Source: a phage
Sequence record: PZ476263.1
Length of the DNA: 64,000 bases
Reading direction: 5' to 3' (one strand)
Shown one piece after another: positions 50,113 to 64,000 of the stretch. The notes below the pieces were generated by a model. The model was not told the DNA's origin and did no database searches. It saw only the letters and a list, made by a program, of their open reading frames with translations. A program made the translations under genes and the position numbers. Every line of letters begins with the position of its first letter. The first letter of the stretch is position 1.

Positions 50113-50118
50113 GATATA

Positions 50119-51190: not shown

Positions 51191-51329
51191 GATACGGAAC
51201 CTATACTTACTAACCCTCCACGTACACGATCCGATAACGCCCCTATGCAAACATACGACAATTAATGTATGACTTACACAACCTCCTTAATCAATTAAAA
51301 TAGTCAAGCTTAAGACCCTAAAAAATTTT

Positions 51330-52122: not shown

Positions 52123-52329
52123 GTTGTGTTGCCCTTTCTTCTATTGTGCGCCCTAGTTGACGCGGTAAAAAGATATTAACTCTTCTTCCTATATAAAGCA
52201 AGTAAAAAGAAACATAAAAAAGATTGAAAATGTTGTTGACGTAGGAAAAAGGTTGGCGTAGTATTCATCTCATCGAACGGCGGCACAACTTAACGCCTAC
52301 ATTAATTAACGTTACTCACTAAGGGGTAA

Positions 52330-52518
52330 ATGATGGAAAGAAAAATTAATCAGCTTGCACCTGGTGCGGTAATGATTCACGAAGGATCAAAACACACTGT
52401 AGTAACTAATCGCCCACACAATGTAAGAGCAAACAAAAATATATTGCAGTTAAAGGATCGTTTTGGTATAGTACAGACTTACACGATTGAGTCAAACAAA
52501 TCAGTTATCGCACACTAA
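52330..52518 (+). CDS. hypothetical small protein
   Basis: 62 aa, RBS AAGGGG. Confidence 0.5.
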   Translation: MMERKINQLAPGAVMIHEGSKHTVVTNRPHNVRANKNILQLKDRFGIVQTYTIESNKSVIAH

Positions 52519-52535
52519 TTAAAAAGGTATACACT

Positions 52536-52871
52536 ATGAGTCAGCAAACTAAATATTTCATCGAAGGCGTTCAAGCGGCATCAACTGGTTTAGGTCCAGT
52601 AAGCCGTTATAAAAAGCCTGAGAACATCGCTGAATTTATGAAAGGGTATGAATCTGTAAGCCGTGAGGCAATGATACTGAGATTCGAATCTAATCCGGTA
52701 GGCAAGTCTAAAAATTCATACAGTGAAGCGCCCGACGTTGTTTATGTTGGTACAGTTAAGCAATGTAACGACCGATTGATCATGTTGCAGCAAAAAGACC
52801 GTAGCGGATTTTTTAAGGTCTACACTAATGATGGTAAACCTTATGAATACGAAAGCAAATATTTCAAATAA
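52536..52871 (+). CDS. hypothetical small protein
   Basis: 111-aa ORF. Confidence 0.5.
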   Translation: MSQQTKYFIEGVQAASTGLGPVSRYKKPENIAEFMKGYESVSREAMILRFESNPVGKSKNSYSEAPDVVYVGTVKQCNDRLIMLQQKDRSGFFKVYTNDGKPYEYESKYFK

Positions 52872-52886
52872 GTTTTAAAAAAGTAG

Positions 52887-52946
52887 TTGACAGCAAGAAA
52901 GTAAACAAGTATATTACACACATAGCGGCGGCAATGATGCAACCGC
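52887..52946 (+). promoter_or_regulatory. sigma70-like promoter plus conserved 5' leader hairpin
   Basis: TTGACA 52887-52892, 17 nt, TATATT 52910-52915; leader hairpin GCGG...CCGC 52925-52946. Confidence 0.6.
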
Positions 52947-52968
52947 AAGACAAAGAGAGATTATCAAG

Positions 52969-53184
52969 ATGGCTAAAGTAACTTTTAAAAAATCCCATAC
53001 CGTTTCCAATGTTGCAGCTGTAAACATGACTATGCCAACTTATAAAACACGCGACGCAGCTCGCAAGGTGGCAACGAAGATCCGCAGTGCTGGCTTGTCT
53101 GTCACGCAGCCTGTAAAAACGGAAAACGGTTGGCAATTGAATGTTAAGCATGTTGGCGGTACTCTTACAATCAACAAAGGCTAA
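52969..53184 (+). CDS. hypothetical small basic protein
   Basis: 71-aa ORF. Confidence 0.55.
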   Translation: MAKVTFKKSHTVSNVAAVNMTMPTYKTRDAARKVATKIRSAGLSVTQPVKTENGWQLNVKHVGGTLTINKG

Positions 53185-53254
53185 TAATAATACTAATCTT
53201 TCATAGCCGGATCGCTGGTCCGGCAAATAACCAACAATATAAAAGGAAACAAAG

Positions 53255-53407
53255 ATGGCTTATTCCAACAACGTAGAAAAAATCAAAGCAAACAAAGATC
53301 GTAAAGCCTGGAATGAAACGGTGATCCGTAAAGGTGCAAAACTGAATAAGACCAAACGTGATCGCACTGATAAACGTGCCTTTGTTGAAATGGAAACAGA
53401 GATCTAA
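53255..53407 (+). CDS. hypothetical small basic protein (not in ORF track)
   Basis: 50-aa ORF with RBS AAAGGAAA. Confidence 0.4.
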   Translation: MAYSNNVEKIKANKDRKAWNETVIRKGAKLNKTKRDRTDKRAFVEMETEI

Positions 53408-53408
53408 C

Positions 53409-53699
53409 ATGAAAAAATTTATTATCGGCGCGGCGGCGGTGTTTCTTTCCTTGAATTGCCAGGCTAATGATACAAAATATCTAAGATGTAACGCCGTCAT
53501 GACCGATGAACAATCAGGGAACACGTTTAAAAAGCCGTTCGAAATAAATCCGGCTGCATTTAATGACGGTGTATTCTACCAAAAGAAAGGGAAAGGCAGT
53601 ACAACGATCTACTATGACGCATCAAAAAACCGAGGGGATATCAGTATCATGGTTGGCCCTGAGGTTGTAGTGTCCGGTTACTTCTCCTGTGAGAAATAA
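53409..53699 (+). CDS. small secreted protein
   Basis: N-terminal signal peptide MKKFIIGAAAVFLSLNCQA; start placed at 53409 (track ORF starts 53358). Confidence 0.5.
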   Translation: MKKFIIGAAAVFLSLNCQANDTKYLRCNAVMTDEQSGNTFKKPFEINPAAFNDGVFYQKKGKGSTTIYYDASKNRGDISIMVGPEVVVSGYFSCEK

Positions 53700-53703
53700 A
53701 GCA

Positions 53704-53732
53704 AGGCCCCTCCCCTGGGGCCTTTTTCTTTT
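53704..53732 (+). terminator. rho-independent terminator
   Basis: AGGCCCC-tccc-ctGGGGCCT hairpin followed by TTTTTCTTTT. Confidence 0.7.
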
Positions 53733-53760
53733 ATGTCCCCCAAAATATTTAAAAATGTTG

Positions 53761-53788
53761 TTGACAGTAAAATTGATTCTGATAAGAT
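53761..53788 (+). promoter_or_regulatory. sigma70-like promoter driving ncRNA-like element copy 1
   Basis: TTGACA 53761-53766, 16 nt, TAAGAT 53783-53788. Confidence 0.55.
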
Positions 53789-53794
53789 GTATCC

Positions 53795-53869
53795 CATCAG
53801 GACGGGGAACGAAGTAAACACTTCCCGTTAAGTAGTCCAGGAGTAAGACATACGAAAAACTCCCCTGAT
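53795..53869 (+). ncRNA. candidate small structured RNA, copy 1
   Basis: No ORF; outer ATCAGG/CCTGAT pairing and inner ACGGGGA/UCCCGU hairpin; near-identical second copy at 56493-56569 with a different loop. Confidence 0.45.
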
Positions 53870-53887
53870 AAAAAGATTTAAAAGTGG

Positions 53888-53942
53888 TTGACAAGAAATT
53901 AAAAACTGTTAAGATGTATCACATAGGGCGGCAATGAGGCCG
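53888..53942 (+). promoter_or_regulatory. sigma70-like promoter plus leader hairpin
   Basis: TTGACA 53888-53893, TAAGAT 53910-53915, hairpin GCGGC-aatgag-GCCGC 53926-53942. Confidence 0.6.
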
Positions 53943-53965
53943 CAGATAACAAAGAGATAAAGAAA

Positions 53966-54337
53966 ATGGCTAAAAATATCAATGTTGCAATGTACGCTGA
54001 ATCCACCAACGCAGATAATGTAAAATTTAAAATTAGCGAGATTGAAGCGGTTCACATTTTGGCTAAACGTTGGTTTCAATCTTCATACGGTAATACTTAT
54101 TTCTCTTTGTCTGTTGATATCGAGATCAGCGGTAAAATGATTGAAGTGGTAAACGTGCCGTTCCAATATGGCTACGGGGATCACTTTGACACTGTGGCAA
54201 TGGAAGAATTTAGCAAGGTTATTGATATGGAAAGTAAAGAATTTTTAAAAGGTAATTACCTGACACGTTTTTGTAAAGATAATGATGTATCTGTTTACTG
54301 CAATGCAGTTGATGTAAAACGTAAAAAAGATTTATAA
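53966..54337 (+). CDS. hypothetical small protein
   Basis: 123-aa ORF. Confidence 0.55.
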   Translation: MAKNINVAMYAESTNADNVKFKISEIEAVHILAKRWFQSSYGNTYFSLSVDIEISGKMIEVVNVPFQYGYGDHFDTVAMEEFSKVIDMESKEFLKGNYLTRFCKDNDVSVYCNAVDVKRKKDL

Positions 54338-54343
54338 TTGTTG

Positions 54344-54404
54344 TTGACAAGATAATTAAAAAGCGTAGAATGTACAACATAGAGGGCGGGAATGGTTCCC
54401 GCCT
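54344..54404 (+). promoter_or_regulatory. sigma70-like promoter plus leader hairpin
   Basis: TTGACA 54344-54349, TAGAAT 54366-54371, hairpin GGCGGGAA...TTCCCGCC 54384-54404. Confidence 0.6.
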
Positions 54405-54425
54405 CACTAAAAAGAGATTAAAATC

Positions 54426-54650
54426 ATGGCTATTATCACCACCAAAATCACAAATACTGTTGGCGAGTCTTTTGTAGTTGCATTTATCACCAATCAACCT
54501 GTTGATGATATTCATTGCACTGTCAACAATTTTGCAGAAAATAATTTTGGTCAATGGTCATCTGTTGAGTACATTGAAACGGTCCAGGTTGCAGCGTTCA
54601 AGGTTAGCCAACATGTTGATTATATTGTTGCACTTGATGAATTAAATTAA
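54426..54650 (+). CDS. hypothetical small protein
   Basis: 74-aa ORF. Confidence 0.5.
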   Translation: MAIITTKITNTVGESFVVAFITNQPVDDIHCTVNNFAENNFGQWSSVEYIETVQVAAFKVSQHVDYIVALDELN

Positions 54651-54657
54651 AAAGTAG

Positions 54658-54714
54658 TTGCAAACAATCTTAAAAAGCGTATAATGTTTTACATAGAGCG
54701 GGAACTATTCCCGC
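54658..54714 (+). promoter_or_regulatory. sigma70-like promoter plus leader hairpin
   Basis: TTGCAA 54658-54663, TATAAT 54680-54685, hairpin GCGGGAA...TTCCCGC 54698-54714. Confidence 0.6.
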
Positions 54715-54736
54715 CAGATATAACGAGGAAAGTGTA

Positions 54737-54979
54737 ATGGAAACCATTTTAATCAAAGACACTGCAACTACTGTTACTTATGATAATGATTGTATTATCC
54801 CTGGTACTGATTACGGCGAACGTGTACCCGTTCAAGTCGAGATTGACACTACATACATTGACCAGGCTGAAAAGTGTATCACTATTGTTATTGGTGAATA
54901 TCGTTTTCTACCAGAAGAGATCCAAAAATGGCAGTATATGATTGACCGTTCGAAATTAGTTGCACAAAGTTTAAAATAA
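54737..54979 (+). CDS. hypothetical small acidic protein
   Basis: 80-aa ORF. Confidence 0.5.
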   Translation: METILIKDTATTVTYDNDCIIPGTDYGERVPVQVEIDTTYIDQAEKCITIVIGEYRFLPEEIQKWQYMIDRSKLVAQSLK

Positions 54980-54982
54980 TAC

Positions 54983-55042
54983 TTGCAATTAGTTTTCAGT
55001 ACTGTACAATGTTTTACATCGAGAGCGGTAGTATTGCCGCTC
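54983..55042 (+). promoter_or_regulatory. sigma70-like promoter plus leader hairpin
   Basis: TTGCAA 54983-54988, TACAAT 55005-55010, hairpin GAGCGG...CCGCTC 55023-55042. Confidence 0.6.
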
Positions 55043-55062
55043 ACAGCAAAGAGAAATCTAAA

Positions 55063-55305
55063 ATGAAAAAATTATCTTCCATCGTCAATCATAATGAAAT
55101 TTTCATTAATGAAAAATCCTACGCATGCATTCAACTAAAAGAGATGAAAGGTGATCGCCGTGTAACTGTCGTTCGCAAAGTTAAAAGTAAGCCTTTTAGT
55201 AATTACTCTATCGATACCGTTCGCATCAATAACGAAGATTATTTGATCGATAGTCAAATAACTTGCAGTCCCACAGCTTCAGTTAGTGCACCATATCACT
55301 ATTGA
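55063..55305 (+). CDS. hypothetical small protein
   Basis: Start placed at ATG 55063 downstream of promoter/hairpin (track starts 55009). Confidence 0.5.
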   Translation: MKKLSSIVNHNEIFINEKSYACIQLKEMKGDRRVTVVRKVKSKPFSNYSIDTVRINNEDYLIDSQITCSPTASVSAPYHY

Positions 55306-55330
55306 CAGAAGGGCCGAGAGGCCCTATAAT
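55302..55330 (+). promoter_or_regulatory. consensus sigma70 promoter with GC hairpin in spacer
   Basis: TTGACA 55302-55307, 17-nt spacer containing GGGCC-gaga-GGCCC, TATAAT 55325-55330. Confidence 0.6.
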
Positions 55331-55364
55331 ACAAACCACCTTAACAAAGAATGAGAGAAACAAA

Positions 55365-55571
55365 ATGATTAATGAAAAACAGATTAACGATGTTCGTGAT
55401 GAGGCTTACTGTACTGCTATTACCAATGGATCACGCGCCGCTTTCAATCTTGTTGTTGACTTGTACCCTGAGCAAGCCGAAAACATTCTTTACCAAGTCA
55501 GTGTAAAGTTGGAAGCAACCGGACACACAAAGTTATCAAACGGAATTGACAAGTTGATCAAAACACTTTAA
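55365..55571 (+). CDS. hypothetical small protein
   Basis: Start placed at ATG 55365 (MINEKQ) after the promoter; track ORF starts 55302. Confidence 0.5.
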   Translation: MINEKQINDVRDEAYCTAITNGSRAAFNLVVDLYPEQAENILYQVSVKLEATGHTKLSNGIDKLIKTL

Positions 55572-55653
55572 TATCTGGTTAACTTTTATCAATGCCGTCG
55601 TTATAGTGGCGGCATGAATAAAAGAAATCATTCTACAACGTAAAGGTTGAAAA

Positions 55654-55965
55654 ATGGATCAAGTCATCCCAATGATAGGTTTAATCGGCTTAGGCTACAT
55701 CGCTACCAGTTTAGCTATGAGTTACATCAATAAGAGAAGAGATAAAATGTTTTGTTACTTTGAATATACTTACAACGGTAAAACAGGGTCATCCCGTGAC
55801 TATGGCCCAATGTTAGAGATTGATGCGGTTGGTGCTATGCGGTATCGAGAGAGCTTAGGGGCAAAGATAACGTTTGAAGTATACCGATCTACCGAAGAGG
55901 AATTATTTTCGATCATTGATGAACGTGCTTACATGCAAGAGCAACAAGATAAACGCCGTAAATAA
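55654..55965 (+). CDS. small membrane-anchored protein
   Basis: 103 aa; N-terminal hydrophobic helix IPMIGLIGLGYIATSLAM. Confidence 0.5.
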   Translation: MDQVIPMIGLIGLGYIATSLAMSYINKRRDKMFCYFEYTYNGKTGSSRDYGPMLEIDAVGAMRYRESLGAKITFEVYRSTEEELFSIIDERAYMQEQQDKRRK

Positions 55966-56014
55966 TTAATATTGTAAATAATTAACAAATCAAACAACAA
56001 GCAAGGTAAACATA

Positions 56015-56158
56015 ATGAATACAAATATTAACCGTGAGAAAGTAAAAAGCAAAAACAAAATGGACTATGAAGAAGTAAAAGCAATGAAGAAAAGCAAAGA
56101 TAACAAACAACAACGCCGCAGGACGCGCTACAGTTGGGAAAACATAGACATCCTTTAA
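56015..56158 (+). CDS. hypothetical small basic protein (not in ORF track)
   Basis: 47-aa Lys/Arg-rich ORF. Confidence 0.35.
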   Translation: MNTNINREKVKSKNKMDYEEVKAMKKSKDNKQQRRRTRYSWENIDIL

Positions 56159-56190
56159 GATTGTATAAGTTGAAACATAAATCATCACAA

Positions 56191-56217
56191 AGGCCCTTTA
56201 AGGGCCTTATTTCATTG
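56191..56217 (+). terminator. rho-independent terminator
   Basis: AGGCCC-ttta-AGGGCCT hairpin followed by T-rich tract. Confidence 0.6.
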
Positions 56218-56227
56218 GAGGGAATAC

Positions 56228-56455
56228 ATGATTAATCCATATAGCTTAACAGAGTTGATCCGACTTCTGAAATCTAAGCCGCTAGGGACGGCTTATACTT
56301 ATATTGTGATGGAGGGTAAGGATTATGCAGGGGTAAGCCGATCTATCACGGCAACGGCCTCTAGGGAGGGCCTAAAGGTGAGTATTTCGCAGATCCTTAT
56401 TGTTGATCCTTCCACATGTGAGACGAAAGAAGCTGTAAAAATAATTAGAAAATAG
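56228..56455 (+). CDS. hypothetical small protein
   Basis: 75 aa, RBS GGAGGG. Confidence 0.5.
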   Translation: MINPYSLTELIRLLKSKPLGTAYTYIVMEGKDYAGVSRSITATASREGLKVSISQILIVDPSTCETKEAVKIIRK

Positions 56456-56458
56456 TAT

Positions 56459-56486
56459 TGACACTGTATTGGAATAGTGTAGAATT
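56459..56486 (+). promoter_or_regulatory. sigma70-like promoter driving ncRNA-like element copy 2
   Basis: TTGACA 56459-56464, 16 nt, TAGAAT 56481-56486. Confidence 0.55.
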
Positions 56487-56492
56487 TATTAC

Positions 56493-56569
56493 ATCAGGAC
56501 GGGGAACAAAAACAAATAGTTCCCCGTTAAGTAGCCCAGGAGTAAGGCAGACGAAAAACTCCCCTGATA
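56493..56569 (+). ncRNA. candidate small structured RNA, copy 2
   Basis: Same element as 53795-53869; perfect ACGGGGAA/TTCCCCGT stem; loop differs while stems are conserved. Confidence 0.45.
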
Positions 56570-56576
56570 AAAAGAT

Positions 56577-56604
56577 TGACAACAAATAGTAAATAAGTAC
56601 AATA
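56577..56604 (+). promoter_or_regulatory. sigma70-like promoter
   Basis: TTGACA 56577-56582, 16 nt, TACAAT 56599-56604. Confidence 0.55.
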
Positions 56605-56654
56605 AGACTTAATGAGACGGGCAAAGGTCCAAAACAACAACAAGGTAACTTATC

Positions 56655-56891
56655 ATGATTGAACAAATCAAAACTACTAAACCAAATTTTAACGGTGATG
56701 TTTCTCACTTTATTGGTGACAATGAAAGAGGAACACCCTACGCTGCGGTAACAGTTCAGCCAAATGGTGATTATTGGTTTACCTTGTACGGGTCTTATTC
56801 CTTTGGACGTTCGGCACATGAAAAGATCTTACAAGTAGTTAAGCCTACAGGAAAGAACATCACGGCAGAAAAATATTTTACTAAACATTAA
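56655..56891 (+). CDS. hypothetical small protein
   Basis: 78-aa ORF. Confidence 0.5.
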   Translation: MIEQIKTTKPNFNGDVSHFIGDNERGTPYAAVTVQPNGDYWFTLYGSYSFGRSAHEKILQVVKPTGKNITAEKYFTKH

Positions 56892-56898
56892 AAAGTAC

Positions 56899-56956
56899 TT
56901 CCAAACTAAGTTTAAAAGCGTATAATGTTTTACATCAAGAGCGGCAAGGGCCGCTC
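56899..56956 (+). promoter_or_regulatory. sigma70-like promoter plus leader hairpin
   Basis: TTCCAA (weak -35) 56899-56904, TATAAT 56921-56926, hairpin GAGCGGC-aagg-GCCGCTC 56939-56956. Confidence 0.55.
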
Positions 56957-56978
56957 ACACAAACAAAGAGAAATTATC

Positions 56979-57230
56979 ATGACTAACAAAACTAAAACTA
57001 CTAAAACTTATAACGGTCACAAAAACAAAACTCATTGGAATGTTTCCTTATGGATTAATAACGGTGAGTCATTGTATCGGCTTGCTCAAAATTGCATCGC
57101 TCAAAGTAAAACGAAAGATATTGCGGCGGAATGTATGTACCGCAGATTAAAAGCCAACGGTACTACTACAACGCCGGACGGATTCAAGTATAGCACTACG
57201 GCGATCCGTGCTGCAATGGTTGGAATGTAA
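56979..57230 (+). CDS. hypothetical small basic protein
   Basis: Start placed at ATG 56979 downstream of promoter/hairpin (track starts 56925). Confidence 0.5.
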   Translation: MTNKTKTTKTYNGHKNKTHWNVSLWINNGESLYRLAQNCIAQSKTKDIAAECMYRRLKANGTTTTPDGFKYSTTAIRAAMVGM

Positions 57231-57286
57231 CATTCAATACTGAGTTAATGGCGGGATTAGTTCCCGCCTTTGCGGAGAAATATCTA

Positions 57287-57574
57287 ATGAGCAAAGTAAT
57301 TGACTATAAAGTGTTAACTAAATCATTGTCAATCAGTGAGTGCAACGATGGTTTTTGGATGTACGATGAAACACGCGGCATGAATCTAGCTATGAAGGCT
57401 AAAACGGCTGAGGCGGCGTATGTGCAAGCCCTGGAATACTACCAGAGACGTTTAAAGGAAGTAGAAAACAATTATCAGAATCTCAAAGAGAAAGTAGATC
57501 ATTTCGTTGGTCAATTCGTTGACGATGACGAGGAAGACGGGCACTACTGCAACCGCTGCGGATCTTACAATTAA
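57287..57574 (+). CDS. hypothetical small protein
   Basis: Start placed at ATG 57287 after leader hairpin GGCGGGAttagTTCCCGCC (57250-57268); track starts 57248. Confidence 0.45.
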   Translation: MSKVIDYKVLTKSLSISECNDGFWMYDETRGMNLAMKAKTAEAAYVQALEYYQRRLKEVENNYQNLKEKVDHFVGQFVDDDEEDGHYCNRCGSYN

Positions 57575-57596
57575 ATAAATAAATAAATAAAAAAGT

Positions 57597-57658
57597 TTGA
57601 CAACGTTTTAAATTAGTGTAATATGTATCACATAGAGCGGTGGAATGGTCTACCGCTC
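57597..57658 (+). promoter_or_regulatory. sigma70-like promoter plus leader hairpin
   Basis: TTGACA 57597-57602, TAATAT 57619-57624, hairpin GAGCGGT...ACCGCTC 57635-57658. Confidence 0.6.
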
Positions 57659-57678
57659 ACAAATAAGAGATTATCAAA

Positions 57679-57858
57679 ATGACTATCATCGCAAAAACTG
57701 AAATAATCGGCCTGGATTCTATCATCATGACGTTTGAAGAACAAAAAGGTATGTATGTAGTTTCCTATAGTAATTATGTTCGGGAGTATGAAACGGTAGA
57801 CGAAGCCTTTGAAAGTTACATTCGTCAGGTGAATAAAGCATACGACGACTACCGCTAA
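57679..57858 (+). CDS. hypothetical small protein (not in ORF track)
   Basis: 59-aa ORF directly downstream of promoter/hairpin. Confidence 0.45.
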   Translation: MTIIAKTEIIGLDSIIMTFEEQKGMYVVSYSNYVREYETVDEAFESYIRQVNKAYDDYR

Positions 57859-57945
57859 AATATATTACCAGTACTATTAAAGATATTGACAATGTTTGAT
57901 AGTACTGTATGATTGATTTTATCAAGACTCCTAAAGGATCACAAA

Positions 57946-58089
57946 ATGAAAATTTGCCAATGTGGTAAAAAGTCTATCCCTGGTTTAAAACGTGGTGTTT
58001 CTCTTTGTCAGTATCATTATAATGTTAAAATATGGGGTAAACAGTGGGCCGACCAAGTGGAAGCATCAAAGAAAGTAAAAAGTAATTAA
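57946..58089 (+). CDS. hypothetical small Cys-containing protein (not in ORF track)
   Basis: 47-aa ORF MKICQCGKK...CQYHY; promoter TTGACA/TATGAT upstream. Confidence 0.35.
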   Translation: MKICQCGKKSIPGLKRGVSLCQYHYNVKIWGKQWADQVEASKKVKSN

Positions 58090-58180
58090 AATATTTAAAC
58101 AGTTGACATTGGTTTATGTGGTCGGGTACAATGACCACATAGACAAATGAAACAAACAATATAAATTAACGAGGTTTATC

Positions 58181-58492
58181 ATGATCTTTGAAGTTTTTGC
58201 GGGTATGTGTTTTTATGGTGCTGCCGCCGTTCGTCAATGCGATGATTATGTAGTTGAATCATATAATGATGTTTTAACTTGTGAGATCGTAACTAGTGAA
58301 TACTCACGGGATCGCCGTTGGATTAATCCAGCCTGTATCGACTCTCTGGAAGCTATGCCAGAAGGTCAAGAATTAACAGAAGAAGAAACAGAAGAGGTTA
58401 GAGAGGTATTATCTTACATGCTCGATAACTTAGATTCTAGTGCACTGCAAAGAATGTATGCAGTAGCACAAGAAAGCGAACTGACCAACTGA
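58181..58492 (+). CDS. hypothetical small acidic protein
   Basis: 103-aa ORF; promoter TTGACA/TACAAT with hairpin ATGTGGTC...GACCACAT over the -10. Confidence 0.5.
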   Translation: MIFEVFAGMCFYGAAAVRQCDDYVVESYNDVLTCEIVTSEYSRDRRWINPACIDSLEAMPEGQELTEEETEEVREVLSYMLDNLDSSALQRMYAVAQESELTN

Positions 58493-58519
58493 CCAAAACA
58501 GATAACAAGGTAAACAAAA

Positions 58520-58702
58520 ATGAAAGCATCAATGATGGTTGCAACTGTAAACATTATCATAGGTAACGGCACGGGACACCATGAGATCATAAAAAACAAG
58601 GCTTACAGCCTTGCAACCTTAAAGGCGGATATGCGCTTATCCCTGGGGCAAATCAAAGCTTACTTTCGTGAAGGTCATCACAAAAAGGTAGTAAATTCTT
58701 AA
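58520..58702 (+). CDS. hypothetical small protein
   Basis: 60-aa ORF. Confidence 0.45.
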   Translation: MKASMMVATVNIIIGNGTGHHEIIKNKAYSLATLKADMRLSLGQIKAYFREGHHKKVVNS

Positions 58703-58721
58703 AATATTTCTTTACTTGTGG

Positions 58722-58750
58722 GCCTATCTTCTTTAAGATAGGCTTTATCA
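58722..58750 (+). terminator. rho-independent terminator
   Basis: GCCTATCTT-cttt-AAGATAGGC hairpin followed by T-rich tract. Confidence 0.55.
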
Positions 58751-58782
58751 GTTTTAGAATACACAAACAAAGAGGGTACAAA

Positions 58783-59076
58783 ATGAAAAAGGCAAATCAA
58801 TATTTCTTCCTGAATGCCGTTAATGATCATATCGTTGTTAGCATGTTGGTTAATTCGAATCCAATGATGCTAACATTTTGTGACGAGGCATACACTTTAC
58901 CAAAACATAAAAAAGCATTTTTAAAAGTGGTTGCAACTCCAAATAAAACAGGGTATATTCTTGACTATAAGGTCACAGAAGGTCAGAAAGTGATTGCAGT
59001 CGGTGAAAGCACCGAGATCCCTAAGGATGAGATCTACGGCGTGATCGCTGGTTTTGTGAATGCAGTGTTTGAATAA
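58783..59076 (+). CDS. hypothetical small protein
   Basis: 97 aa, RBS AGAGGG. Confidence 0.5.
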   Translation: MKKANQYFFLNAVNDHIVVSMLVNSNPMMLTFCDEAYTLPKHKKAFLKVVATPNKTGYILDYKVTEGQKVIAVGESTEIPKDEIYGVIAGFVNAVFE

Positions 59077-59102
59077 TCATACAACCATAAAGAGACAAGA
59101 TC

Positions 59103-59324
59103 ATGAATAAAGTAACTGAATTTTTATATCAATCATTGGCAACTTTACTGTTTACCGTTGCAGGTATCGCCCTTATCAGTGGTGTTGGTGCAATGTTTAT
59201 CGGTTACTTCACTTTTACCGCTATTACTTTCATCGTTTGTCCTGTAATGGCATACGCCGCTACAAAAATTGTAATCTATGTGGATGATAAAATTTATCCT
59301 AAAAAGTCATTGCATACTAAGTAA
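59103..59324 (+). CDS. small membrane protein
   Basis: 73 aa, two hydrophobic helices. Confidence 0.5.
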   Translation: MNKVTEFLYQSLATLLFTVAGIALISGVGAMFIGYFTFTAITFIVCPVMAYAATKIVIYVDDKIYPKKSLHTK

Positions 59325-59387
59325 GATTAAAGTATATTACATACATTGAAGCGGTGAACGGTTCACCGCACAAAAAGAGTAAATAAA

Positions 59388-59540
59388 ATGTTTAAGTTAA
59401 TAACCTGGGAACATCAATCATCTTCACCAATCACCCGCACCTTTTTTGATCTGTGTACCGCTTATCGTTTAGCTAAAGGTGGTTACTATAAAGCCCAGAT
59501 TATTGATGAAAACAATGTAATACTGTACGAATTCAAATAA
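59388..59540 (+). CDS. hypothetical small protein (not in ORF track)
   Basis: 50-aa ORF downstream of leader hairpin GCGGTGAAC...GTTCACCGC (59349-59370). Confidence 0.4.
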   Translation: MFKLITWEHQSSSPITRTFFDLCTAYRLAKGGYYKAQIIDENNVILYEFK

Positions 59541-59742
59541 AAAACTTTAAAAAAGTAGTTGACACGAATAACAGATAGTATATAATTACTATCAACAAGA
59601 CGGGAAACAGGTTCCCCACTAAATAATCTTACAGGAGTCCGTAAAATGATGGCAATCTTCTTAATCTCTCTTCTGGTCGCTGTTTCTTCTGCAACTGCTG
59701 CCGCTGTTCTGTATGATACCCGTTACAATGAGAACTGATAAA

Positions 59743-59970
59743 ATGCTAAACATGAAAAACGTTGTCGGAAAGACTGAGACACTAAAAGCGCTTAATCCTG
59801 GTCAATCAACGGTGTGGATCTGCACTGAGGCCGGAAAGGTCGAAAGAGATATGAGATTATTTACTGCGACCGCTTGCAGATTAAAATTTAAGATTGTTCA
59901 AAGTAGCGCGATGATTGTAAAGGTAAATGATTTACCAGTAGAATCCATTATTATTACCCGTATAGAGTGA
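59743..59970 (+). CDS. hypothetical small protein
   Basis: Start uncertain (ATG 59713 or 59743); a 30-codon hydrophobic mini-ORF (59647-59738) lies upstream. Confidence 0.45.
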   Translation: MLNMKNVVGKTETLKALNPGQSTVWICTEAGKVERDMRLFTATACRLKFKIVQSSAMIVKVNDLPVESIIITRIE

Positions 59971-59982
59971 AAGAGGCCATAA

Positions 59983-60291
59983 ATGTATAAAGACTATATT
60001 TTCAACGATAAATATAACAATGTGATTGAAATCAGCGAACAATCGAAAGATGCGGCGGTAAATCGTATCGGGCAAGTTTTAGGATTATCAGCAAAGGATC
60101 TTATTCTAGTGCATGATCTTATTCTAGTGCATGAGTCTGATAATCCTGATTACCTGGCTGCAAGGGATAGCGGCTTGAATCATGAGTCTGCAATAGAGGT
60201 CGCAAATGGTGAGATATCACTAGATGACGCTCTCGGGGCAATGGATATGGTTAGCGAGTGTAATTTTATGCTTATGGAGGCTTCAAAATGA
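59983..60291 (+). CDS. hypothetical small acidic protein
   Basis: 102 aa; internal 22-bp perfect direct repeat (aggatcttattctagtgcatga twice, 60095-60138). Confidence 0.5.
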   Translation: MYKDYIFNDKYNNVIEISEQSKDAAVNRIGQVLGLSAKDLILVHDLILVHESDNPDYLAARDSGLNHESAIEVANGEISLDDALGAMDMVSECNFMLMEASK

Positions 60292-60480
60292 ATCCTAACG
60301 GCCTTGAATTTAAAGCTATTCCCAACCTTGCCGGATTGCGTAACAAATCGGCACGAAATCAAAGAAGATTGGAGAAAAAGAAGAATAATAGAAAATAATT
60401 GTTGACACCCTTCCTTAAATCCTTTAAATTGCTCCACATAGGGCGGCAATAGTGCCGCTCACTAATCTGGAGTTATCACC

Positions 60481-60882
60481 ATGACTTTTACAATCCTTTC
60501 TTATGCTGACGTAGCAAACATCGCTAAAACTTTTGGACCTCGGGCACTGGAATATGCCGTATCTAATGGTAATCTGACAAAGGAGCAATGCTACCTGATC
60601 GGCAGTTGTAAACGTTGGGCGGTATCCCGTAACATCGAGATTGAAAACGTTAATGATGGGAATATCGAGTACACTGTTGATGCCGTATTCCAATCTATTG
60701 ACCTGGGCGGTATCTATAATACCAATCTTAACGATGTTCGTATTATCCGCACTGGCTTCGGTGCTTATGATGTATCTATCCGTGAAGCTATGGACAAGGG
60801 ATACATTAGCAAGGATCAATTAGCTTACATCATGCAACAAACTAAGGAACGTAACGAAGTAAAGGCTATCTTAGGCTTGTAA
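60481..60882 (+). CDS. hypothetical protein
   Basis: 133-aa ORF downstream of promoter TTGACA plus leader hairpin GCGGCA...TGCCGC. Confidence 0.55.
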   Translation: MTFTILSYADVANIAKTFGPRALEYAVSNGNLTKEQCYLIGSCKRWAVSRNIEIENVNDGNIEYTVDAVFQSIDLGGIYNTNLNDVRIIRTGFGAYDVSIREAMDKGYISKDQLAYIMQQTKERNEVKAILGL

Positions 60883-60900
60883 TCCGGTAGTCAGCTTACA

Positions 60901-60926
60901 AGGCCCCTTCATGGGGCCTTTCTTTT
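60901..60926 (+). terminator. rho-independent terminator
   Basis: AGGCCCC-ttcat-GGGGCCT hairpin followed by TTCTTTT. Confidence 0.7.
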
Positions 60927-60969
60927 ATGTGTTGAGCAAAAATAAATTAAAAATAATTCAAAAAGACTA

Positions 60970-60997
60970 TTGACTCAACCGCAAAAAAGGGTAGAAT
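60970..60997 (+). promoter_or_regulatory. sigma70-like promoter driving long ORF-free leader
   Basis: TTGACT 60970-60975, 16 nt, TAGAAT 60992-60997. Confidence 0.55.
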
Positions 60998-61003
60998 GTA
61001 TTA

Positions 61004-61287
61004 CATCAAGACGATGAAGCAGCGATGTAAAGTAGTCGCCCTGGTGAGTAAGTTCGGTGAAGGTTAATCGACCTAAGTAACCGAAAGTTAGTAAGGATAA
61101 GGACTCTGGGATTGAATACGTCATAGACGGGCTACACTATCCAGTCAGTGAAGAGGTCGGCTGAGCAATGACCCTACGGCTTTACGAAGACCGTGCTATC
61201 CTGTGACTAACAACAAAAACAGTAAAAAGCAGTAAGAAACACAAAGTAAAGAATTTTAATCAAATCACAAAATAAAAGGTTGACATC
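61004..61287 (+). ncRNA. candidate structured RNA / long 5' leader (about 280 nt, ORF-free)
   Basis: Promoter-proximal region with no ORF over 17 codons; many local stem-forming segments; the TTGACA at 61279 is too close to the ATG to serve the downstream gene, so 61288 is probably transcribed through this leader. Confidence 0.4.
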
Positions 61288-61527
61288 ATGCAAACGATCA
61301 TTACTAAGTTTTTGGCCCCTACTAATACCCGTTGCGCTCGCATCATTGCAAAATGCTGGTTGACAAATATCACGATTGCTTATCCAGTAGCGGAGATCAA
61401 CGAAGCCCACAAAATTGCAGCTCAGCAATTGATCGTTAAGTTAAAGATGACGACGGGCAATGATTGGAATATCGTTGCAAGTGGTGAAACACCGGACGGA
61501 TCAGGTTATGCATTTATCATCAAATAA
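61288..61527 (+). CDS. hypothetical small protein
   Basis: 79 aa, RBS AAAGG. Confidence 0.5.
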   Translation: MQTIITKFLAPTNTRCARIIAKCWLTNITIAYPVAEINEAHKIAAQQLIVKLKMTTGNDWNIVASGETPDGSGYAFIIK

Positions 61528-61609
61528 GTGTTGACAAGCTAGGTAATAAATAGTAAATTGATGTTCTGGCGGCGCAACGGTGCACGGCATAGGTTAAGGA
61601 CCAATTATC

Positions 61610-61996
61610 ATGAAAACAGAAATCATTATTGAAATCATCAACGGTTATAAAGAAGCCTTTATCTTTGCTGAATCAGCCAGGGATCATGAAGGTAATTTTA
61701 TAGAGAACATGACTGATTATGAATTTTCAGATCAAGCCCAGCAACGGATCATTCGTGACGTGGCGGCTTTTTGTGATGCCAATGATGCCGCTATCTCTGA
61801 GGCAATGAGCGACGGCGCAACAGCCAACCAGATCGGGAATGATTTACATTTTACCCGTAACGGTCACGGCGTAGGCTTTTGGGATCGCCCTGAAATATAC
61901 ACCACTAACACGGCTAACCGCTTAACTAATGCGGCTAAGTTTATGCCAGATGTGACGGCTTACATTCGTGAAGATAATTTGATTTATATTGAATAA
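61610..61996 (+). CDS. hypothetical acidic protein
   Basis: 128-aa ORF; promoter TTGACA/TAAATT upstream. Confidence 0.55.
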   Translation: MKTEIIIEIINGYKEAFIFAESARDHEGNFIENMTDYEFSDQAQQRIIRDVAAFCDANDAAISEAMSDGATANQIGNDLHFTRNGHGVGFWDRPEIYTTNTANRLTNAAKFMPDVTAYIREDNLIYIE

Positions 61997-62079
61997 AAGT
62001 ATTGACACAGATCGGCATTGTGCTATGATTTACCACGTAGGGCGGCAATATCGCCGCCTCAATCAAAGGAAGTAAAACC

Positions 62080-62379
62080 ATGAATCAGACCACTTTAATT
62101 TCTTCTCTTCTTTCTTATGACGATGACCGCCTGAGCAACGGATCACTTTTTGATGCTATTACCTTTGAATCCTCAAAGATTGGTGCAAGCGTTCTTAAAT
62201 TTGCATATCTTGAAAATTACGAAATCAATCAGATTCGTTTGAACATCCTGGATAGCATTACCACTGAGGAAGGCGTAAAGGTTAGCAAGGCCGCAAGCAA
62301 GGAAGGTAAAACGTTTATCATTGTTGATTATCTCGATATCTATGGGGATAAGGCCAGTAAGTATTTTATTGCACAATAA
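62080..62379 (+). CDS. hypothetical small protein
   Basis: 99-aa ORF downstream of TTGACA/TATGAT plus leader hairpin GGCGGC...GCCGCC. Confidence 0.55.
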   Translation: MNQTTLISSLLSYDDDRLSNGSLFDAITFESSKIGASVLKFAYLENYEINQIRLNILDSITTEEGVKVSKAASKEGKTFIIVDYLDIYGDKASKYFIAQ

Positions 62380-62390
62380 AGGAAAACATC

Positions 62391-62582
62391 ATGACCGTTG
62401 ATCAAGTTAGAAAGGTTTTAGCAGCGTTGCGCTATCACAACCACAGCAAGGTAAAGAATGATCCTGATTATCTGGATTCATCATTGGAAGAGGATACCTT
62501 GCAAGCTATAAGCCATATGCAAACAATGCTTAAGCGTATGACTGAGAAAAACAGATCAGATTATATTGGCGATAAGATTTAA
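62391..62582 (+). CDS. hypothetical small protein
   Basis: 63-aa ORF. Confidence 0.45.
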   Translation: MTVDQVRKVLAALRYHNHSKVKNDPDYLDSSLEEDTLQAISHMQTMLKRMTEKNRSDYIGDKI

Positions 62583-62670
62583 AAAGTACTTGCATTGTAC
62601 TTAGAATCAAGTATAATGTTTTATATCGAGAGGGGGGAAACGGTTCTCCCTGATAATAAGGAATAAAATC

Positions 62671-62874
62671 ATGACTGCTGCTAACCGCCTGATCGCCGTC
62701 CTGAATAAAGCAAAAACTAACCTTTTAGACGTTCAAATCAAAGAACAGGCGAACGGTGAGATTCTCGCCACGGTATCCGATGGCGGTTACATATCAGAGT
62801 CATTCACTACCGATAATCTGGATCATCTTGTCTGGAAATTAGAAATTATCGTAGAGGATATGCAAATCATCTAA
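62671..62874 (+). CDS. hypothetical small protein
   Basis: 67-aa ORF downstream of TTGCAT/TATAAT plus GC hairpin. Confidence 0.5.
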   Translation: MTAANRLIAVLNKAKTNLLDVQIKEQANGEILATVSDGGYISESFTTDNLDHLVWKLEIIVEDMQII

Positions 62875-62883
62875 TCATTGCAA

Positions 62884-62907
62884 AGGCCCTTCGGGGCCTT
62901 TCTTGTT
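62884..62907 (+). terminator. rho-independent terminator ending the small-gene cluster
   Basis: AGGCCC-ttcg-GGGCCT hairpin followed by TTCTTGTT. Confidence 0.7.
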
Positions 62908-62912
62908 ATCGG

Positions 62913-62986
62913 TGTCACTCCCCCAACCTATATAAACCTTCCTATCCTATTCCTCCCATCAATCCACAACCTAACCCAACCGTTTG
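62913..62986 (+). repeat. G-depleted tract on + strand
   Basis: About 70 consecutive nt with no G (tcactcccccaacctatataaaccttcctatcc...). Confidence 0.6.
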
Positions 62987-63278
62987 GATTATCTAATCAT
63001 CAATACCTATAAAATCTTATACTATATCACAATAGCTTTTCCCTTGTCCACAATAATTATGAAAGAGAACCATTGCCAGAATATCGAGAGGGTGGCGCGA
63101 CCGTAGGGAGCGACACTATAAAACGAGTATACCCTCCTACCGCTATGCGGTCATCGGTGATAACCGATATCGTTACACGCTATCTGTTCTCTTCGTTTCC
63201 TCGTTTTATAGTGTCTATCAGTTAAACAAAATTAGTCTTTGTCAATTATTATTTCACTTATTCCCAAAATAAATTGGC

Positions 63279-63362
63279 TGTAGTTACTATTGAATGTAGC
63301 AATAGTTCAAATGATTGTAGTAATAGTTCAACTGAATGTAGTAATAGTTAAAATGATTGTAT
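63279..63362. repeat. tandem 21-bp direct repeats (about 3.5 copies)
   Basis: tgaatgtagcaatagttcaaa / tgattgtagtaatagttcaac / tgaatgtagtaatagttaaaa / tgattgtat. Confidence 0.7.
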
Positions 63363-64000
63363 ATTCACTTTATTTGAATATGTAATCAATAGGGTTGCTT
63401 ATACCATAGATGATTAGTAGTGTCAACAGGTAATTATTGTTCGCAAAGAGATAGAGATTGTTTATTCTTTGTCCACAATGAAGGTCGTAAGGGCACTTAT
63501 AGCATGGTTTTCTTTACCTTTGCTTGATAAAGCACGCTTCTCTCTTCTTGTCAAATAAAAATTTATTTTTTCTTTCTTGCCAGAATATCGAGGGTGACTT
63601 GCCCCAATGTTGGGAGGGCCGTCGGTCGTGGAATCTATCAAGTTGGAATGATTCGACCTGCAACCTTTATTGTTGGGATAGTCACGTCTGTAATCGTCCC
63701 AAACCAGGCGGGGCGCGGAGTAGGGGAGTAGTCGGGTCGTCAGTCAATCCATTTTGGCAACTGGTCCGGCTTAGTGCGTATAAGTTGTATTATGTTAAAT
63801 GCAGATCGAAATCGGTATTCTAAATCAGATTCAGAAGTCAATAGAAATCTTTAACTTTATTGTTGGAAGGGCACAACATTTTTCTTGACAAGTCGAATCA
63901 AAGATGTATTGTGGATTGAAAATAAATGAAGATAATGCTTGACTTCTTGGATATTTTGAAAACATCGGACCCCCCTCCCCCTCCCCCGAGAGCGGCGTGC

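Follow-up and report, generated by a model that had tools for sequence, protein, structure and literature searches.

A conserved hairpin-forming element beside the 475-bp direct terminal repeat at the probable right-hand genome end of Escherichia phage Jab

The gene-free, repeat-rich stretch that closes the phage DNA analyzed here (64,000 nt of record PZ476263.1; hereafter the window) is very probably the right-hand physical end of the genome of Escherichia coli phage Jab, an rV5-like myovirus of the subfamily Vequintavirinae. As a kind of feature, a short direct terminal repeat (DTR) at the end of a phage genome is ordinary, and the DTR of Jab has already been published; the anatomy of the surrounding cis elements is newly described. 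In front of the DTR lies a conserved hairpin-forming element, and this arrangement is the usual, barely described end structure in rV5-like phages; we found no annotation or paper in which the element is described. The features of this region are listed in Table 1; all five repeats named in the initial annotation are present, and its coordinates differ from ours by no more than 1-5 nt.

Table 1. Sequence features at the right-hand end of the window.
Feature	Position	Strand	Remarks
Intrinsic terminator	62882..62901	+	8-bp stem with 5 GC pairs, then a T-rich tail (terminator scan)
G-free, C-rich tract	62915..63034	+	67-nt run at 62915-62981 and 47-nt run at 62988-63034
16-mer TTGCCAGAATATCGAG, copy A	63073..63088	+	2 nt 5' of the core, outside the DTR
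GC-rich core GGTGGCGCGACCGTAGGGAGC	63091..63111	+	Consensus GGCGCGAsCGkAGsGAGC
Inverted repeat, perfect 16 bp	63112..63215	.	GACACTATAAAACGAG (63112-63127) pairs with CTCGTTTTATAGTGTC (63200-63215)
Inner hairpins of the inverted repeat	63139-63151 and 63155-63195
AT-rich spacer	63216..63525	.	Between hairpin element and DTR; composition profile, 23-33% GC over 63190-63460
Tandem 21-bp repeats, core TGTAGTAATAGTT	63280..63361	+	3.4 good copies and one degenerate leading copy from 63280
DTR, right copy (probable)	63526..64000	.	Near cut 63525/63526; far cut at genome end 64000; from published length and homologous edges
16-mer TTGCCAGAATATCGAG, copy B	63577..63592	+	Starts 51 nt inside the DTR
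GTTGGRA direct repeats, candidate protein-binding array	63609..63868	+	Copies at 63609, 63642, 63672, and 63862
27-mer GTGCGTATAAGTTGTATTATGTTAAAT	63774..63800	+	Near the middle of the DTR; unique in the window
Sigma-70-like promoter match TTGACA-16-TATTGT (putative)	63885..63912	+	Points to the genome end; 10/12 positions
Poly-C tract CCCCCCTCCCCCTCCCCC	63970..63987	+	Ends 13 nt before the far cut

Because the published PCR primer pair Jab2_F and Jab2_R matches the window (at 6266 and 6436), we assigned the window to the last 64 kb of the Escherichia phage Jab genome. According to the Jab paper, this genome is 142,100 bp in length and has a DTR of 475 bp; that paper contains no read-start analysis, and the DTR rests on CheckV, which reports any overlap of a sequence start with its end as a DTR and on its own cannot separate fixed ends from assembly overlap. 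Positions 63526-64000 amount to exactly 475 bp, matching the published length. The primers, the published DTR, and the homologous edges described below support the assignment of this segment as the right DTR copy, with base 64000 as the probable physical end. One copy of the DTR falls within the window, and the left genome end lies outside it. Sequence comparison identified Septuagintavirus, UPEC06, and LTH01 as the closest relatives, in agreement with the Jab paper. Exact-pattern scans of IMG/VR and JGI metagenomes and exact-protein look-ups with the last two genes recovered neither Jab nor further relatives. A Pfam search of the large open reading frames (ORFs) in the window found replication genes only and no terminase gene.

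The edges of the DTR were examined by comparison among Jab, UPEC06, Gotham, and KPP-1. The record of UPEC06 has an exact 462-bp repeat shared by its start and end; in alignment with Jab, this record begins at 63526 and stops one base beyond the equivalent of 64000. The termini of this phage were analyzed with PhageTerm, and the genome announcement gives no PhageTerm result. KPP-1 has a 514-bp DTR derived from twofold coverage and PhageTerm and was classed as T7-type; for Gotham (459 bp), fixed ends are based on reads and twofold coverage. Read starts that pile up at the repeat edges were reported for both of these phages. Redundancies of 458 bp were reported for EdH4 and HdK5. At the near edge, all four mapped phages have in common the context ..TTGCTW|RAYAA.. 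followed by a CT-rich stretch and TGTCAA, and at the far edge, which is visible in three, the common context is ..CCGTC(C)GCC|TGGCAGCA. In Jab, the corresponding cuts read ..TTGCTT|GATAAA.. at 63525/63526 and ..GGCGTGC| at 64000. The edge contexts are also kept in eight further genomes, and the near-edge context lies exactly 274 nt 5' of the 27-mer in Mydo, PVP-SE1, GAP31, 4MG, and EC152. For PVP-SE1 (NC_016071), the predicted ends are 117218-117732. Thus, the fixed, sequence-specific edges common to relatives by which a DTR terminus is recognized were found in all four phages compared. The initial annotation had named packaging sites, genome termini, and replication origins as typical settings of such repeat clusters, and the terminus is the reading that the primers, published DTR, and homologous edges support.

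These edges also bear on the possibility that the genome has no fixed ends, such that the 475-bp overlap is an assembly artifact of a circularly permuted headful genome and the repeats are intergenic regulatory clutter between convergent transcription units. We regard this as very improbable. The rV5 genome was originally described as circularly permuted, headful packaging with partial permutation was deduced from PhageTerm in one Vequintavirus paper, and the CheckV call is compatible with an overlap of either origin. However, the break occurs at homologous nucleotides in four phages for which both the assembling groups and the methods differed, the edge context keeps its distance from the 27-mer in eight further genomes, and both Gotham and KPP-1 have read-based fixed ends with twofold coverage.

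The DTR is part of a terminal module with the same order across the subfamily, namely, a terminator, a G-free C-rich tract, the GC-rich core with the inverted repeat, an AT-rich spacer of ~200-310 bp, and the DTR with its central 27-mer. We defined the module by the core consensus with a perfect inverted repeat (15 bp or longer) immediately after it and the 27-mer 419-677 nt downstream; Jab conforms to this definition with the core, arms, and 27-mer given in Table 1. The succession of core, perfect inverted repeat, and 27-mer was found in a single orientation, after a gene block transcribed towards the module, in 13 genomes and in Gotham, the record of which was reverse-complemented (we oriented it with the module landmarks and the location of the arm rich in small, promoter-rich genes). 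The core is ~92-97% identical in Seunavirus, Avunavirus, Mydovirus, and unclassified Acinetobacter and Serratia phages, and it matches 69 phage records, mostly in unannotated stretches. The 27-mer is present with at most four changes in 14/14 genomes, 419-677 nt after the hairpin element. Among the four genomes with mapped DTRs, its distance to the near edge is 235-274 nt and that to the far edge 169-213 nt. Jab and KPP-1 have spacers of nearly equal length (310 and 308 nt), and that of Gotham measures 199 nt.

The inverted repeat was placed by the initial annotation at 63110-63220 as 16 bp with internal hairpins, and our analysis bears this out. The similarity of the arms extends to 90% over 21 nt, and the arms enclose 72 nt. 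When folded as DNA, the segment 63108-63220 has a predicted free energy of -21.3 kcal/mol (z = -5.97), and none of 200 shuffled sequences folded as well. Despite differing in sequence, the arms pair perfectly over 15-21 bp in each of the 13 genomes examined. Across nine lineages, 13 of the 18 pairs have changed on both sides and none on one side only, a pattern that 0/500 shuffles reached. Strict Watson-Crick pairing holds in all ~190 arm pair-cells, with zero G-U pairs. The tip of the inner hairpin has three versions among the close relatives, each of which keeps the pairing, and the loop ranges from 71 to 217 nt across genomes with unrelated content. Judging from this pairing pattern, the hairpin element most plausibly acts at the DNA level. 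Because PVP-SE1, Av-05, and TH18 carry a third copy of the right arm, the perfect complementarity of the arms could instead reflect a single co-evolving protein that binds at two inverted sites.

The same observations can be set against the alternative that 63073-63222 is a gene for a small structured non-coding RNA, with a paralogous unit from 63577, in which the 16-mer would act as promoter or mark the 5' end, with an RNA stem formed by the inverted repeat. This block is near-invariant across six close relatives, the replacement at the inner-hairpin tip is compensatory, and the arms covary across genera. Moreover, one G-U pair in the inner hairpin and the T-G wobbles in a small hairpin at 63805-63816 suit the plus strand only. 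Nevertheless, we consider an RNA gene quite unlikely. No Rfam match was found in the Jab region (E ≤ 1) or in five relatives (E ≤ 0.1), and the z-scores of the RNA fold are modest on both strands (-1.66 for plus and -1.36 for minus). Upstream of the 16-mer, there is no credible sigma-70 promoter, and the stem has no terminator after it. The total lack of G-U among the arm pair-cells is unusual for an RNA stem, and the loop varies in length and content among genomes. A weak CrcZ-like Rfam match is located at 61213, outside the end region.

The view of the initial annotation that this region has no convincing genes holds: the ORFs are at most 99 aa, and searches of the region found no tRNAs and no Rfam matches. 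A 50-aa ORF over 63073-63225 has its frame broken by a 1-nt indel in all relatives, and the 99-aa ORF has no conserved product. An example of the small proteins annotated in several relatives is a 44-aa ORF on the minus strand (63965-63831), which is intact and annotated in W70, A73, A5-4, and LTH01. It has GGAGG 8 nt before its ATG, in a G-rich Shine-Dalgarno-like leader that is the complement of the poly-C tract, and UPEC06 has a synonymous change from CCA to CCG. Yet the 11 substitutions among seven genomes fall 4/3/4 on codon positions 1/2/3, no homologue was found outside the 95%-identical DNA block, the annotated strand and extent of such genes differ among genomes, and the other ORFs are frameshifted or unconserved. 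We consider it extremely unlikely that the region encodes small proteins.

Several further elements are located in or near the DTR. The dispersed repeat that had been noticed at 63074 and 63578 corresponds to the 16-mer TTGCCAGAATATCGAG, which occurs in two exact copies and nowhere else in the 64 kb. Similarity between the two sites extends upstream to a unit of ~55 nt, with TTGTCC or TTGTCA exactly 29 nt before each copy. Both copies are kept as TTGCCAGAGTATGG in 6/6 close relatives; in Gotham and PVP-SE1, a different 18-20-mer abuts the core and recurs downstream. We considered an ancient tandem third copy of the DTR behind the 504-bp spacing of the 16-mers, and this idea is unsupported, with only ~55 nt similar at that offset. 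The sequence AAATATCGAGG near the repeat start of Gotham was also considered as a counterpart of the 16-mer in Jab; with Gotham oriented by the core, the inverted repeat, and the 27-mer, it lies at the opposite end and in the opposite orientation, and we regard it as a coincidence. Readings of the 16-mer and 27-mer as sigma-70, sigma-54, extended -10, or T4 late or middle promoters were rejected, as inspection by eye revealed no register in which both hexamers and spacing were acceptable and a promoter scan was empty there.

The GTTGG motif occurs four times in Jab and six times per close relative, always in plus-strand orientation within the DTR, compared with 0.5 copies expected in 475 nt from the window-wide frequency. 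It is absent from the flanking gene-free DNA in Jab and five of the six relatives, and W70 has four copies in a longer flank. The sigma-70-like match is invariant in seven close genomes except for one base in UPEC06. The poly-C motif cccccctccccctccccc, previously placed at 63970-63988, is present with its right end corrected to 63987; Gotham and KPP-1 are merely C-rich at this place. The initial annotation had proposed that a lack of conservation of these repeats in related genomes would speak against its reading. The outcome of this comparison is mixed: conservation extends to the inverted repeat, the 16-mer, and the right DTR half but not to the 21-bp array, and the poly-C tract is kept only in the six closest relatives. 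Because the 21-bp array and the poly-C tract are unconserved beyond the closest relatives, they may lack a role in packaging.

The 21-bp array figures in another reading of the region, in which 63062-63525 is a replication origin with 21-bp iterons, an AT-rich unwinding spacer, and the core and hairpin as a site for primosome or primase loading. Such an origin would be compatible with a DTR at 63526-64000. The array was noted earlier as 3.5 tandem copies at 63279-63362; we found 3.4 copies at 63291-63361 (period of 21, 86% matches) and a degenerate copy from 63280. The period equals two helical turns, the repeats are within a ~250-bp stretch of 23-33% GC, and the adjacent hairpin element is conserved and strongly folding. 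These helix-phased direct repeats beside an AT-rich stretch resemble iteron origins such as lambda ori and plasmid oriV. In addition, the sequence TTGTCCACA, which agrees with the DnaA box TTATCCACA in 8/9 positions, occurs at 63043 and 63468, and plasmids of T7 require an origin together with the concatemer junction for packaging, as indicated by the title of Chung and Hinkle (1990) given in a citing paper.

Against this reading, an equivalent array was absent at the spacer in all 12 relatives examined, which have only unrelated two-copy repeats. An iteron origin may be recognized by at least three phased direct repeats beside an AT-rich region, which Jab has, and by a conserved array with an initiator gene, which it lacks; unlike known iteron origins, the Jab array consists of 3.4 copies only and has as its neighbors genes for small hypothetical proteins. 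The DnaA-like box reads TTGCCCACA with two mismatches in six close relatives, and about one near-match per 1.1 kb is expected by chance; we rejected the two copies of TTGTCCACA in Jab as DnaA boxes, as they are weak and unconserved. Turns in GC skew within the window track only the direction of transcription, and the authors of the rV5 study found likewise. Taken together, a replication origin at this location appears unlikely.

Upstream of the module core, the intrinsic terminator ends the last small plus-strand gene of early type (62671-62874), and terminators are annotated at the equivalent place after the last gene in PVP-SE1, Gotham, and Mydo. The G-free tract that follows had been delimited as ~70 nt at 62913-62986, which is slightly too wide. 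The exact run contains 31 C (46%), 20 A, 16 T, and no G, with Gs at 62914 and 62982, and no other G- or C-free run in the window is as long; 7/200 dinucleotide shuffles reached 67 nt. Most relatives have C-rich, G-poor windows of 60 nt after the last gene (23 C/2 G in A7_1, 23/4 in PVP-SE1, and 26/1 in ABPH49), and this property is weaker in KPP-1, Mydo, and Kashira. By composition, the tract looks like a putative Rho-utilization (rut) site. Sites of this kind have no sequence consensus and are recognized as C-rich, G-poor segments of ~60-80 nt downstream of a gene, a description that fits 62915-62981. The likeness lies in ~70 nt of C-rich DNA without G directly after a coding region, recurring in most relatives; the difference is that the Jab tract comes after an intrinsic terminator rather than replacing one.

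From this arrangement, we infer what the hairpin element, the 27-mer, and the GTTGG array do, as well as every protein-DNA interaction, as follows. The intrinsic terminator and the G-free tract, as a probable Rho loading site, would keep transcription out of the end region, where a perfect inverted repeat, able to fold into a branched hairpin, comes after the GC-rich core. In concatemers, a single copy of the DTR would join successive genomes. The terminase would recognize sequences in or near the DTR, for which the central 27-mer, the GTTGG array, and the 16-mer are candidates, and would cut at two fixed sites, 63525/63526 and 64000. DNA synthesis would then duplicate the DTR such that both ends of each packaged genome carry it, as in T7-type packaging. 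The hairpin element, which in every Vequintavirinae lineage examined is 200-310 bp outside the DTR on the side of the genome being completed, may serve in the copying of the DTR as a site of fold-back, nicking, or priming; alternatively, it may be an origin that feeds concatemer formation. A tentative, though possible, specific form of this model is that the core and inverted repeat constitute a cis-acting DNA hairpin that duplicates the DTR, through fold-back or nick-primed synthesis or as an end-proximal origin, and that the 27-mer is the terminase site that sets both cuts at measured distances.

For the subfamily, this comparison defines the start and end of Vequintavirinae genomes by sequence, with two cut-site contexts and the 27-mer as a landmark, and adds a conserved, covarying hairpin element beside the DTR. 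Many Vequintavirinae records could be re-oriented to their true ends, which is relevant to a subfamily widely proposed for phage therapy; the engineering and rebooting of these genomes also require correct termini. The hairpin and the 27-mer provide mutational targets for studying the duplication of short DTRs outside the T7 model. If the tentative roles given above for the hairpin and 27-mer are true, they would constitute the first set of cis elements to be defined for DTR duplication in a large myovirus, and the ends of dozens of records described as circularly permuted (e.g., PVP-SE1) would be predictable by sequence alone.

Compared with other Vequintavirinae, the DTR of Jab is similar in length and has the same location, a gene-free gap of 2-3 kb towards which the gene blocks on both sides are transcribed, with homologous cut-site contexts, the 27-mer inside the DTR, and the core and hairpin 200-310 bp outside. 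However, the DTR sequences of Gotham and KPP-1 cannot be aligned with that of Jab outside the 27-mer and the two edges, and no protein similarity was found between the end-proximal genes of Gotham and Jab. The 16-mer, GTTGG array, and poly-C tract are found only in Jab and the group of Septuagintavirus, UPEC06, and LTH01, and the 21-bp array only in Jab.

Jab resembles T7 and T3 in having fixed ends with a direct repeat that is short and exact, a single copy of which is present per junction and needs duplication during packaging. The terminal repeat of T7 is 160 bp, compared with 475 bp in Jab. Jab differs in having no sequence similarity to these phages, in being a myovirus of ~140 kb, and in having no single-subunit RNA polymerase gene in the window. 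The heptamer ATCTGTT, at which T7 RNA polymerase pauses, occurs at 63182-63188 and is invariant in close relatives, with ~0.13 occurrences expected by chance. We rejected it as a T7-type pause site, as a match of seven bases lacks significance and a polymerase that could read it is missing; no T7-type RNA polymerase is known in Vequintavirinae. In T7, a hairpin-ended DNA intermediate that contains the repeat was reported, and an origin with the junction suffices for the packaging of plasmids (Chung and Hinkle, 1990; Molineux, 2006; both as summarized in citing work). In the genome map of rV5, the corresponding gene-free gap between transcription units was drawn as a gray "non-coding" box with no assigned function (Kropinski et al., 2013). 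That genome was then taken as circularly permuted, whereas the gap is now seen to hold a DTR and conserved cis elements.

In database searches, the end region and the preceding 19 kb are closest to Escherichia phages A7_1, W70, A73, A5-4 (Septuagintavirus), UPEC06, and LTH01, all in Vequintavirinae. Both primers (Jab2_F and Jab2_R) of the 2026 paper describing phage Jab match this DNA (positions 6266 and 6436), which is therefore the right 64 kb of Jab or a near-identical phage. The record of UPEC06, on which its authors ran PhageTerm, has exactly the same 462 bp at start and end; its first base aligns to 63526 and its last base one position past 64000. The stretch 63526-64000 is 475 bp long, equal to the published Jab repeat, and this match and the UPEC06 alignment indicate that the window stops at the right physical genome end, not at an arbitrary slice. 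Judged from these comparisons, the last 475 bp is the right copy of the direct terminal repeat (DTR), the only copy within the window. No terminase gene was found within the 64 kb.

Repeat edges are known in four genomes, namely, Jab, UPEC06, Gotham (a 459-bp terminal repeat with a single fixed packaging start), and KPP-1 (a 514-bp repeat established by two-fold coverage and PhageTerm and assigned to the T7-type class); EdH4 and HdK5 have 458-bp terminal repeats. The edges of the four genomes are homologous, and each near edge is followed by a CT-rich run and then TGTCAA (the latter not in UPEC06). Homologous breakpoints obtained by four groups with differing assemblers and methods argue that these ends are real and specified by sequence. 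The genome-terminus reading of the initial annotation, which is correct, thus has this homology in its favor as well as the length match and the UPEC06 alignment. A permuted, headful-packaged Jab genome, with the 475-bp overlap arising from assembly, is contradicted by the homologous edges, although headful packaging was inferred via PhageTerm for one Vequintavirus and rV5 was originally described as permuted.

Repeat edges in four genomes (/, cut; distances in nt)
Genome	Hairpin to repeat	Near edge to 27-mer	27-mer to far edge	Near edge	Far edge
Jab	310	248	200	cctttgctt/GATAAAGC	...GCGGCGTGC (end)
UPEC06		235	200	gtttgcta/GACAAAAC	GCCGTGCC/tggcagcag
Gotham	199	263	169	attatgtca/GACAAGTT	TCCGTCCGCC/tggcagcac
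KPP-1	308	274	213	gtattgcta/AACACAAT	TGTCCGTC/tagcaccgc

The near-edge context also lies exactly 274 nt 5' of the 27-mer (a conserved motif inside the DTR) in Mydo, PVP-SE1, GAP31, 4MG, and EC152, and 211-223 nt 5' of it in Av-05 and TH18. Based on the conserved edge contexts and the 27-mer, we predict repeats of 515 bp in PVP-SE1 (NC_016071 117218-117732; 2643-3157 of locus L010) and 514 bp in Mydo (2386-2899 of locus L015), matching the 514 bp mapped in KPP-1. The rV5 paper placed PVP-SE1-like phages among circularly permuted genomes, with records that 'start in radically different positions'. Locus tags wrap in or just before the gene-free region in W70 (W70_1 by W70_251, locus L004) and A73 (A73_1 by A73_264, locus L005), which suggests that the original assemblies began near the terminal region and that the records were later re-set to the terminase gene start.

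The absence of convincing genes from the end region was borne out, as searches there for tRNAs and Rfam families gave no match and the longest ORF has 99 aa. That the region encodes small proteins is not supported: the 99-aa ORF has no conserved product, all relatives have a frameshift in the 50-aa ORF that crosses the inverted repeat, and the 11 substitutions in a 44-aa ORF on the minus strand, which some relatives have annotated, are distributed 4/3/4 over the three codon positions.

Features of the end region
Feature	Position	Description
G-free run	62915-62981	67 nt, 46% C; second G-free run, 47 nt, follows
Conserved block	63062-63222	16-mer, GC-rich core, inverted repeat; 87-95% identical (91-95% in four of six relatives)
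Dispersed 16-mer TTGCCAGAATATCGAG	63073 and 63577	Exact; absent elsewhere in window
GC-rich core	63091-63111	GGTGGCGCGACCGTAGGGAGCGACAC...
Inverted repeat	63112-63127 and 63200-63215	Perfect, 16 bp
Tandem array	63291-63361	21-bp unit, 3.4 copies, 86% matches
Conserved block	63519-63594	Near repeat edge, second 16-mer; ~76% identical
DTR	63526-64000	475 bp
GTTGG(R)A direct repeats	In DTR	Plus strand; 4 copies in Jab, 6 in each close relative
Conserved block	63773-64000	Right half of repeat; ~95% identical
27-mer	63774-63800	Single occurrence in window
Hairpin ATCG-AAAT-CGGT	63805-63816	4 bp; conserved right half of DTR
Putative promoter	63885-63912	TTGACA-16-TATTGT, directed out of genome end
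Poly-C tract	63970-63987	

The G-free tract, inverted repeat, tandem 21-mers, dispersed repeat, and poly-C motif noted initially are all real by direct reading or repeat tools. Their conservation holds in part. In the comparison with the six close relatives, conservation is confined to three blocks of the end region; the 16-mer, core, and inverted repeat belong to one of these, no counterpart of the 21-bp array was found in the relatives, and the poly-C tract is common to the six closest genomes only. The terminus reading leaves room for a possible replication origin in 63062-63525; the iteron-like array, its most origin-like part, is not conserved. No other stretch of the 64 kb lacking G or C is as long as the G-free run, a length reached by 7 of 200 dinucleotide shuffles. 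The run is C-rich, lies directly 3' of a terminator, and resembles Rho loading sites in composition; in most but not all relatives, the last gene is likewise followed by C-rich, G-poor windows. The GTTGG(R)A repeats are a reasonable candidate for a protein-binding array: window-wide frequency predicts 0.5 copies in 475 nt vs. the four in Jab (Poisson P ~0.002), and in Jab and five relatives none occur in the gene-free DNA alongside (W70, with a longer flank, has four). In the very small hairpin at 63805-63816, one pair is replaced in compensatory fashion in LTH01 (C-G to T-A) and another goes from G-C to G-T in A5-4, consistent with plus-strand RNA or single-strand structure.

A sensitive search with block 63062-63222 matched the core in Seunavirus, Avunavirus, Mydovirus, and unclassified Acinetobacter and Serratia phages (69 records, mostly within stretches without annotated feature). 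In all 13 further genomes compared, including A7_1 and UPEC06, the layout is constant: small genes transcribed towards the element and a terminator, then the core, a perfect inverted repeat (arms 15-21 bp, loops 71-217 nt), and, 419-677 nt beyond it, the 27-mer GTGCGyATAA...GTwTTATGTTAAAT. The order is identical in Gotham and KPP-1 after reverse-complementing the records. A 63-aa ORF (62391-62582) has 86% protein identity to the last gene before the module in Av-05 (Avunavirus); the surrounding genes are not shared, suggesting that this gene travels with the module or is retained beside it.

The core and both arms were aligned across eleven genomes with nine arm variants. Both sides changed in 13 of 18 real arm pairs and one side alone in none, so G-U intermediates are absent. 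This covariation was reached by none of 500 shuffles, and shifting the partner by 1-3 columns lowers pairing from 90% to 30-50%. The longer inner hairpin tip has three versions among close relatives, all with intact pairing. The predicted DNA fold of the Jab element has -21.3 kcal/mol (z = -5.97); as RNA in longer context, its two strands are unremarkable (z = -1.66 and -1.36). Because strictly Watson-Crick pairing is valid on both strands at once, we consider an RNA stem less likely than a DNA-level hairpin or cruciform, or than arms held identical by templated copying. This pairing, the weak RNA fold scores, and the lack of an Rfam match also make a small RNA gene unlikely. Alternatively, a single co-evolving protein may bind the two arms as inverted sites; a third right-arm copy in PVP-SE1, Av-05, and TH18 would fit. 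On its invariant 3' side (CTATCTGTTCTCTTCG), the inner hairpin contains ATCTGTT (63182-63188), the class II pause/termination heptamer of T7 RNA polymerase that occurs at the T7 concatemer junction; the Gotham gene-free gap contains TCTGTTCTCTTCG. Since no single-subunit polymerase is known in Vequintavirinae, the match is probably due to chance.

The window has opposed blocks on the minus (12700-44000) and plus (44100-62900) strands. The point at which replication genes (DnaB-like primase-helicase, PIF1 helicase, and split family-A DNA polymerase) and the early small-gene block diverge, ~44 kb, coincides with a turn in cumulative GC skew. The equivalent genes are co-oriented with the small-gene block in Gotham, indicating that one block was inverted between genera. 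At 62002-62070 and 62590-62660, a strong sigma-70-like promoter and a short GC hairpin in the 5' leader precede each small early-type gene. Promoter-plus-stem-loop cassettes are known for T4-type early genes, and the Jab arrangement is reminiscent of these. The 77 nt at 62600-62676 (sigma-70 promoter TTGCAT-17-TATAAT, 5' hairpin, and start of the last gene) are 94-96% identical to jumbo Asteriusvirus phages (PBECO4, JP4, and others), and scattered early-gene segments of 53800-62680 are 85-91% identical to such phages. These similarities suggest that unrelated groups of E. coli phages have exchanged early-gene or promoter cassettes.

A genome terminus with a DTR is a known kind of feature, and the Jab repeat is already published. 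No earlier description seems to exist of the conserved cut-site contexts, the 27-mer, or the covarying hairpin element; in the rV5 paper, the gap is just drawn as 'non-coding'. The 27-mer, GTTGG array, and 16-mer may act as recognition elements, the G-free tract may be a Rho site shielding the end region from early transcription, and the hairpin element beside the repeat may participate in repeat duplication or end-proximal initiation. The literature establishes, for this family and for T7-type phages, that concatemers carry one repeat per junction, that terminase cuts are sequence-specific, and that DNA synthesis duplicates the repeat; T7 models invoke strand displacement or primed synthesis, with a hairpin-ended intermediate also reported.
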